From: Escherichia coli
GTDB taxonomy: Bacteria > Pseudomonadota > Gammaproteobacteria > Enterobacterales > Enterobacteriaceae
Strand: one strand, 5' to 3'
Assembly (NCBI RefSeq): GCF_003334335.1
Contig: NZ_QOWQ01000244.1
Length of the DNA: 207 bases
Shown here: piece by piece, positions 1 to 207 of the stretch
Numbering within the stretch: position 1 is the stretch's first letter
Layout of the letters: each line of letters starts with the position of its first letter
Translations under genes and position numbers: made by a program
Notes under the pieces: generated by a model
Seen by the model: the letters and a program-made list of their open reading frames with translations, nothing else
What the model was told of the DNA's origin: nothing
Database searches by the model: none

Positions 1-135
1 GCTGGCTCCAAGTGAAAACAGCATCGTGGTGGCAGAAAAACCACCGGCTGCCAGGGCTGAACCCCATAACGCCATCGAGGCTCCGGCCGTGATGAACGAC
101 CCCACGATGGCCGCCGCCCCCAGCACAATCTGCAG
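1..135 (-). other. Predicted membrane-embedded region of the encoded protein (window residues 25-69); about two helix-lengths, possibly a helical hairpin or a helix plus re-entrant segment
   Basis: 45 consecutive residues without D/E/K/R/H: LQIVLGAAAIVGSFITAGASMALWGSALAAGGFSATTMLFSLGAS. Small-residue motifs recur (GAAAIVG, AGASMALWG, AAGGF), and W-G-S at residues 48-50 is a possible turn or interface. Helix boundaries are not computed; this is by-eye hydropathy. Confidence 0.5.
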
Positions 136-207
136 TCCGCCCTTTCCGGCACCGGCCAGTCGCGGCACAATGTGGATGACCGTTCCCTCACCCAGCTGTT
201 CGTGAAG
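1..207 (-). CDS. Partial CDS (internal fragment, truncated at both window edges) encoding an integral membrane protein, probably a transporter/permease; family not resolved
   Basis: Seen in sequence: minus-strand frame (first codon at + 205-207, last at + 1-3) is open for all 69 codons. Translation: LHEQLGEGTVIHIVPRLAGAGKGGLQIVLGAAAIVGSFITAGASMALWGSALAAGGFSATTMLFSLGAS. Residues 25-69 contain no charged residue and are dominated by small and aliphatic residues. Codon usage looks genuine: Leu is CTG in 6 of 9 codons, Ala is GCC in 9 of 13, and third-position GC is about 67% (46/69). The two in-frame Met codons (+ 73-75 and + 22-24) sit inside the hydrophobic stretch and are not plausible starts. 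Inference: membrane protein, likely a transporter, from composition only. Confidence 0.75.
136..207 (-). other. Polar, glycine-rich extramembrane loop of the encoded protein (window residues 1-24)
   Basis: Translation LHEQLGEGTVIHIVPRLAGAGKGG carries all the charged residues in the window (H, E, E, H, R, K) and a Gly-rich stretch, AGAGKGG, immediately before the hydrophobic region. This is consistent with a loop connecting transmembrane helices; which side of the membrane it faces cannot be determined here. Confidence 0.4.

Follow-up and report, generated by a model that had tools for sequence, protein, structure and literature searches.

A fragment of tail tip assembly gene I in a lambdoid prophage of Escherichia coli: identity, base composition and GGA codons

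Identity of the window and its reading frame

The stretch of DNA analyzed here (207 nucleotides at its full length, hereafter the window) almost certainly represents the middle of gene I, which encodes tail tip assembly protein I (lambda gpI family), in an Escherichia coli lambdoid prophage, with a base composition that comes from a Gly/Ala-rich protein segment plus the codon usage of the phage module, and with GGA codons that are noise. The window is 100% identical to positions 306589-306795 of NZ_CP027586.1 (E. coli 2012EL-2448) and to a segment of the STEC2018-553 chromosome, both annotated as "tail assembly protein," and also to positions 40711-40917 of phage PhiR5_1, where the annotation is "tail tip assembly protein I." As judged by this DNA identity, by matches to gpI and PHROG 32, and by its open frame, the window (1-207, minus strand) is an internal fragment of gene I comprising codons (and residues) 78-146 of a 226-residue product, the form to which residue numbers refer throughout. 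Minus strand frame 1 is the sole frame of the six that is open over all 69 codons, and its translation is LHEQLGEGTVIHIVPRLAGAGKGGLQIVLGAAAIVGSFITAGASMALWGSALAAGGFSATTMLFSLGAS. A first-pass annotation had taken this DNA to be coding and proteobacterial, as is borne out by its placement in an E. coli prophage gene with a frame open over 69 codons. The values given there (GC3 of ~67%, Leu mostly CTG, GGA at 5 of 13 Gly codons, 69 codons in all) proved exact, but solely for minus strand frame 1.

The protein-level matches all point to the same family, and no observation runs counter to this identity. A phmmer search of the PDB matched the protein to lambda gpI (UniProt TIPI_LAMBD) in the tail-tip structures 8iyk, 8iyl, 8k35, and 8xcg, in each case chain I; for 8iyk (E = 1.3e-79), residues 2-191 of the annotated 193-residue query aligned to residues 35-223 of the chain. 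Identity to lambda gpI was 70% in an alignment of 11 homologues. The product also matched PHROG 32, "tail assembly protein" (E = 2.9e-69), and the Pfam family Lambda_tail_I (PF06805, E = 2.9e-16), the latter over residues 15-97 of the 226-residue form and model positions 3-83 of 83. Gene I of Stx-converting and other lambdoid prophages in E. coli O157 and other STEC (phage 2851, VT1-Sakai, YYZ-2008, and Stx2 phage 1717) is 95-96% identical to the window at the DNA level. The proteins of 783R2, 2851, Stx1a_2054, and VT1-Sakai are 94-98% identical to that encoded here, nearly all of the nucleotide differences being synonymous changes at the third codon position.

Plus-strand frame 2 also holds an open frame (window positions 1-205, 68 residues), whose ATG starts two bases upstream of base 1. 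We attach almost no weight to the reading of this frame as a genuine gene antisense to, and overlapping, gene I. The frame runs without a stop through nearly all of the window and is open in the four closest relatives as well. A substitution bias toward codon position 3 is not enough to exclude it, nor can such a bias discriminate the sense frame, because plus-strand frame 2 has the same third positions. However, in 6 of 10 homologues, lambda included, the antisense frame is broken by stops in the region equivalent to the window, and all three antisense frames of gene I have stop-free runs of 77-91 codons, as expected of a composition artefact. In addition, the window has no promoter-like site, and the sense product is a known one, lambda gpI having been seen in virions by both cryo-EM and mass spectrometry. 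We rejected the antisense ORF on the basis of its stops in the homologues and as an artefact of composition, and we take minus strand frame 1 to be the coding frame because its product is homologous to a protein known from virions.

We also rejected the possibility that the window is non-coding, the Rfam, signal, repeat, and folding searches all being null. The window gave no Rfam match at E ≤ 1 and contained no promoter- or terminator-like sites; the only repeats in it were two 10-nt chance repeats, and its RNA folded no better than shuffled sequences (z = -0.41).

Prophage context and the start of gene I

The gene order in the E. coli 2012EL-2448 prophage is M-L-K-I-J, with the tail assembly gene lying between the C40 peptidase gene (K) and the gene for gpJ. 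The upstream K homologue has both a Prok-JAB domain (E = 9.7e-16) and an NLPC_P60 domain (E = 2.9e-13). These genes belong to a lambdoid head-tail module that is complete, running from terminase through capsid, portal, tail tube, tape measure, M, L, K, I, and J to the tail fibres, after which the host genes btsSR and yeh follow in the E. coli record. Across 5426 complete E. coli genomes, a gene I match was found in 1763 (32%), at 1-11 places per genome. Gene I is thus accessory and mobile, and the first-pass description of the sequence as a core, native gene gives way to that of a lambdoid prophage gene.

The RefSeq start of gene I in the 2012EL-2448 prophage is a GTG codon (position 19869 of our prophage record, L001), giving a product of 193 residues. 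An ATG 99 nt upstream (L001 position 19770) gives a product of 226 residues and an overlap of 103 nt with K. This overlap equals that in lambda, where gene I occupies positions 14773-15444 and K ends at 14875. The 193-residue form covers only positions 26-83 of the PF06805 model. We consider the RefSeq GTG start of gene I to be probably a mis-call; under the short annotation, the ubiquitin-like domain would lack its first two predicted strands. Several phage records, like RefSeq, use the GTG start (193 residues).

Two further features of this prophage are external to the window. Between M and L (L001 17060-18223) is an inserted gene for an OmpC-like porin, which looks like a moron because its GC content (43.7%, with a GC3 of 0.36) is far below that of the surrounding DNA (~57%). 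The M-porin-L arrangement is present in 92 of the 5426 complete E. coli genomes, and a comparison of the porin gene with the phage collection found no close match, only partial matches of ~73% to P7 nmpC and JL22 ompD. The NZ_CP027586.1 annotation treats the portal gene (L001 7700-10284) as a frameshifted pseudogene, and this copy of the prophage may therefore be defective.

Segments of the protein and their proposed roles

The window starts, in the sense direction, with the last 20 residues (78-97; window positions 148-207, minus strand) of the Lambda_tail_I domain as delimited by the Pfam match, including the conserved strand VIHIVPR, in which V87, I88, H89, V91, and P92 are invariant among the 11 homologues. 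Iyer et al. (2006) described the Lambda_tail_I domain as a ThiS/MoaD-like, ubiquitin-like beta-grasp domain ending in a conserved glycine (PMC1779556). An AF2 model built from the 11-sequence alignment has a low overall confidence (mean pLDDT of 44.6); within that limit, the succession of elements that it predicts (strand 15-19, strand 29-32, helix 37-47, strand 60-64, strand 86-92) would suit a beta-grasp. Gly100 and Gly101 (codons GGC GGA; window positions 136-141, minus strand), at the end of this predicted ubiquitin-like domain, are both invariant in the 11 sequences.

Downstream of the two glycines is a putative hydrophobic, Gly/Ala-rich helix, H1 (residues ~102-124; window positions 67-135, minus strand), assigned from hydropathy, a low-confidence AF2 helix (residues 102-116), and homology to lambda. 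It is followed by a variable Gly/Ala-rich connector between H1 and H2 (residues 125-136; window positions 31-66, minus strand), delimited in the alignment, which is the least conserved part of the protein and carries deletions of 10-12 residues in 4 of 10 homologues. The window ends with the first 10 residues (137-146, TMLFSLGAS...; window positions 1-30, minus strand) of a second hydrophobic helix, H2, as indicated by alignment to lambda, an AF2 helix of similarly low confidence (residues 137-152), and a hydropathy peak. Kyte-Doolittle values in 19-residue windows reach 1.6-1.9 over residues 100-124, with a second peak at residues 139-157, and residues 104-153 form a run of 50 residues that is free of charged and polar residues. 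The two hydropathy peaks are likely to be the counterparts of lambda H1 and H2. The start of H2 aligns with lambda 137-GILFSLGASMVLGGVA-152, a segment resolved in the virion by cryo-EM (PMC10721106). Residues 144-224, which make up the C-terminal domain, are largely invariant across the 11 sequences.

Lambda gpI (PDB 8IYK/8IYL/8K35/8XCG chain I, and 9E7M) is a full-length homologue of the gene I product, with which it shares the Lambda_tail_I (predicted ubiquitin-like) domain, the invariant Gly-Gly, a pair of hydrophobic helices rich in Gly and Ala, and a C-terminal plug domain that is conserved, as well as the L-K-I-J gene order and the overlap of 103 nt with K. The two proteins differ in length (226 residues here, 223 in lambda), in the junction, where AGAGKGG-LQIV here corresponds to AGAKSGGVFQIV in lambda with a gap of one residue, in the H1-H2 connector, which is two residues longer here, and in a C-terminal QG, which is added here.

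Much is known of the lambda protein. Residues 134/135-223 of gpI form a trimeric plug in the lumen of the tail tip, contacting gpJ and the C-terminus of gpH (PMC10721106; PMC12617516). The resolved part of gpI starts at residue 101 in the closed tail tip and not until residue 167 once LamB is bound; the H1 and H2 of gpI are predicted transmembrane segments that, once released, are proposed to enter the outer membrane (PMC11101478). Iyer et al. (2006; PMC1779556) predicted that the JAB domain of K severs the ubiquitin-like domain at the glycine that ends it, and according to a 2025 conference summary gpK does cleave gpI, once gpI has become part of the tip complex and not before (PMC12908700). 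A comparable arrangement has been described in the literature for T5, where the plug domain of pb3 has the position and proposed role of the gpI trimer, closing the tube lumen, with a hydrophobic segment proposed at the outer membrane (PMC10721106). In T5, however, the plug is built as an insertion into a single large hub protein, whereas gpI is a separate product with a ubiquitin-like pro-domain; the likeness between the two is drawn from the literature.

By analogy with lambda, the product of this gene I would be made as an N-terminal ubiquitin-like domain, followed by the hydrophobic H1 and H2 and then by the C-terminal plug domain. The neighboring gpK (a JAB plus NlpC/P60 peptidase) would remove the ubiquitin-like domain at the Gly-Gly after docking of gpI in the tip complex. 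Cleavage of gpI by gpK is taken here from the conference summary, and we infer Gly100-Gly101 to be the exact site at which the JAB peptidase would cut. The remaining gpI would then sit as a trimer in the tail-tip lumen, plugging the tube and holding the C-terminus of the tape measure protein, and upon receptor binding the plug would open and H1/H2 would be released, with their proposed insertion into the outer membrane. Each of these functions is assigned to the present protein through its homology to lambda.

Base composition, codon usage and the GGA codons

The 69 codons of the window have a GC content of 63.3%, a GC3 of 66.7% (46/69), and CTG at six of nine Leu codons (0.667). Their 13 Gly codons comprise five GGA (0.385; residues 85, 98, 101, 119, and 144), five GGT, two GGG, and one GGC. 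For the gene as annotated (193 codons), GC3 is 0.694, CTG makes up 0.733 of Leu codons, and GGA 7 of 28 Gly codons (0.250). The corresponding values are 0.637 (0.52-0.72 per gene), 0.761, and 0.146 in 18 other structural genes of the prophage (5,950 codons), and 0.581 (0.571 ± 0.062 per gene), 0.490, and 0.102 in 50 host core genes (15,759 codons). To compare synonymous codon usage we calculated a leave-one-out log-likelihood ratio for prophage versus host usage, expressed in bits per codon. This ratio was below zero for all 50 host genes (-0.221 to -0.004, mean -0.136) and above zero for 18 of 18 prophage genes (+0.029 to +0.195, mean +0.106), with values of +0.108 for gene I and +0.142 for the window. 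The codon usage of gene I lies outside that of all 50 sampled host genes and at the mean of the prophage structural genes; that is, gene I has the GC-rich, CTG-biased usage of the lambdoid head-tail module, distinct from that of its host. The late genes of PhiR5_1 are GC-rich too, the region from Nu1 to J having a GC content of 56.1% vs. 47.7% in the early/lysis half.

The 63% GC of the window is mostly due to the Gly/Ala-rich segment of protein that it encodes. Gly and Ala account for 38% of its codons, so that the first two codon positions are necessarily rich in G and C (GC1 of 0.67 and GC2 of 0.57). When codons for the same peptide were drawn in simulations from host usage, the GC content was 60.8 ± 2.0% and GC3 was 61.6 ± 5.6%, and prophage usage gave an expected GC content of 62.8 ± 1.9%, vs. 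the 63.3% observed. The GC3 of the window did not differ significantly from that expected for its own peptide under host usage (P = 0.21), whereas the GC3 of the whole gene did (67.7% vs. 60.0 ± 3.1%, P = 0.007). The first-pass annotation had anticipated codon statistics for the full gene like those of the genome background, an expectation contradicted by this difference and by the log-likelihood ratio of gene I (+0.108) compared with values below zero for all 50 host genes. As the GC content of the window is mostly set by the protein segment, it does not permit the inference of a genome of 55-65% GC that had been drawn from it. The sampled host DNA, ~60 kb in all, has a GC content of 52.6% in the prophage flank and 52.4% in a 50-kb core region. 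The overall GC content of E. coli is ~50.8%.

These data bear on an alternative identity for the sequence, namely a native core gene of a proteobacterium of 55-65% GC, with codon usage matching that of its genome. A GC content of 63.3%, a GC3 of 66.7%, and CTG as the main Leu codon would, taken alone, fit such a gene. Yet the sequences that match the window exactly belong to E. coli prophages and to a lambdoid phage, the gene occurs in about a third of complete E. coli genomes (the 32% given above), often in multiple copies, and its position is in the L-K-I-J tail cluster. Together with a host DNA of 52.4-52.6% GC and a codon usage outside that of all 50 sampled host genes, these observations leave a native core gene with hardly any probability.

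We turn to the five GGA codons. Under host usage (10.2% GGA among Gly codons), at least five GGA codons among 13 would occur with P = 0.007, and under prophage usage (14.6%) with P = 0.031. The corresponding probabilities are 0.020 (host) and 0.10 (prophage) for the annotated gene of 193 codons (GGA at 7 of 28) and, by simulation, 0.029 (host) and 0.14 (prophage) for the 226-codon form (GGA at 7 of 30). None of the 29 codon-within-family tests made in the window was significant after correction, in keeping with the first-pass view that the GGA excess is statistically weak and is uninformative alone. Stretches of 69 codons with at least five GGA codons were absent from the 50 host genes (0 of 12,378) and made up 2.3% of those in the prophage genes (107 of 4,726). 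Ala is encoded by GCC at 9 of 13 window codons, with a nominal P of 0.003 vs. both host and prophage usage, also not significant after correction for 29 tests; this skew, which the earlier annotation had not mentioned, exceeds that of GGA.

The homologues provide a direct view of how these codons behave. In a codon alignment of 11 genes, the number of GGA codons in the window-equivalent region was 5, 4, 3, 2, 4, 1, 2, 3, 2, 1, and 1, and at the 13 Gly sites GGA swaps with GGG, GGC, and GGT even among relatives whose proteins are 94-98% identical. The close relatives 783R2, 2851, Stx1a_2054, and VT1-Sakai have GGA at 2-4 of the 13 Gly codons, compared with five here. The window sequence stands at the top of a drifting GGA distribution, and its five GGA codons reflect sampling noise at synonymous sites that drift freely.

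It is conceivable, but in our view very unlikely, that GGA, a rare codon in E. coli, and the GCC skew are functional, with slow codons at the junction of the ubiquitin-like domain and the helix pausing translation and so aiding folding or an ordered processing by gpK. Two of the five GGA codons (residues 98 and 101) flank the Gly-Gly junction, and that at residue 101 is retained in the five closest genes; the nominal P of 0.007 against host usage, and the lack of any 69-codon host window with five GGA codons, also fit a pause. Against this, the GGA positions are kept only among the closest relatives: residue 101 is encoded by GGC or GGT, and residue 98 is Lys, in lambda, 4A7, cdtI, mEp460, and PhiR49_1. 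Moreover, the GGA count drifts between 1 and 5 among the homologues, the whole-gene GGA content is not significant against prophage usage (P = 0.10-0.14), and 2.3% of prophage 69-codon windows match the count seen here. The narrower proposal, that the GGA cluster at the Gly-Gly/H1 junction acts in this lambdoid sub-lineage as a translational pause that coordinates pro-domain folding with docking or with processing by gpK, would similarly be a surprise to us, and sampling noise at synonymous sites is the reading we retain.

Both gene I and the mobile element that carries it were already known, and the fragment presents no novelty. Its value is in part a lesson of method: short Gly/Ala-rich windows look GC-rich in any genome, and to judge the GC content of a host or the "native" status of a gene from 69 codons is misleading, as in this instance, where the gene is actually mobile prophage DNA. 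The biological weight of the finding is small, gene I being well described, the structures of its product solved, and its codon skew noise.
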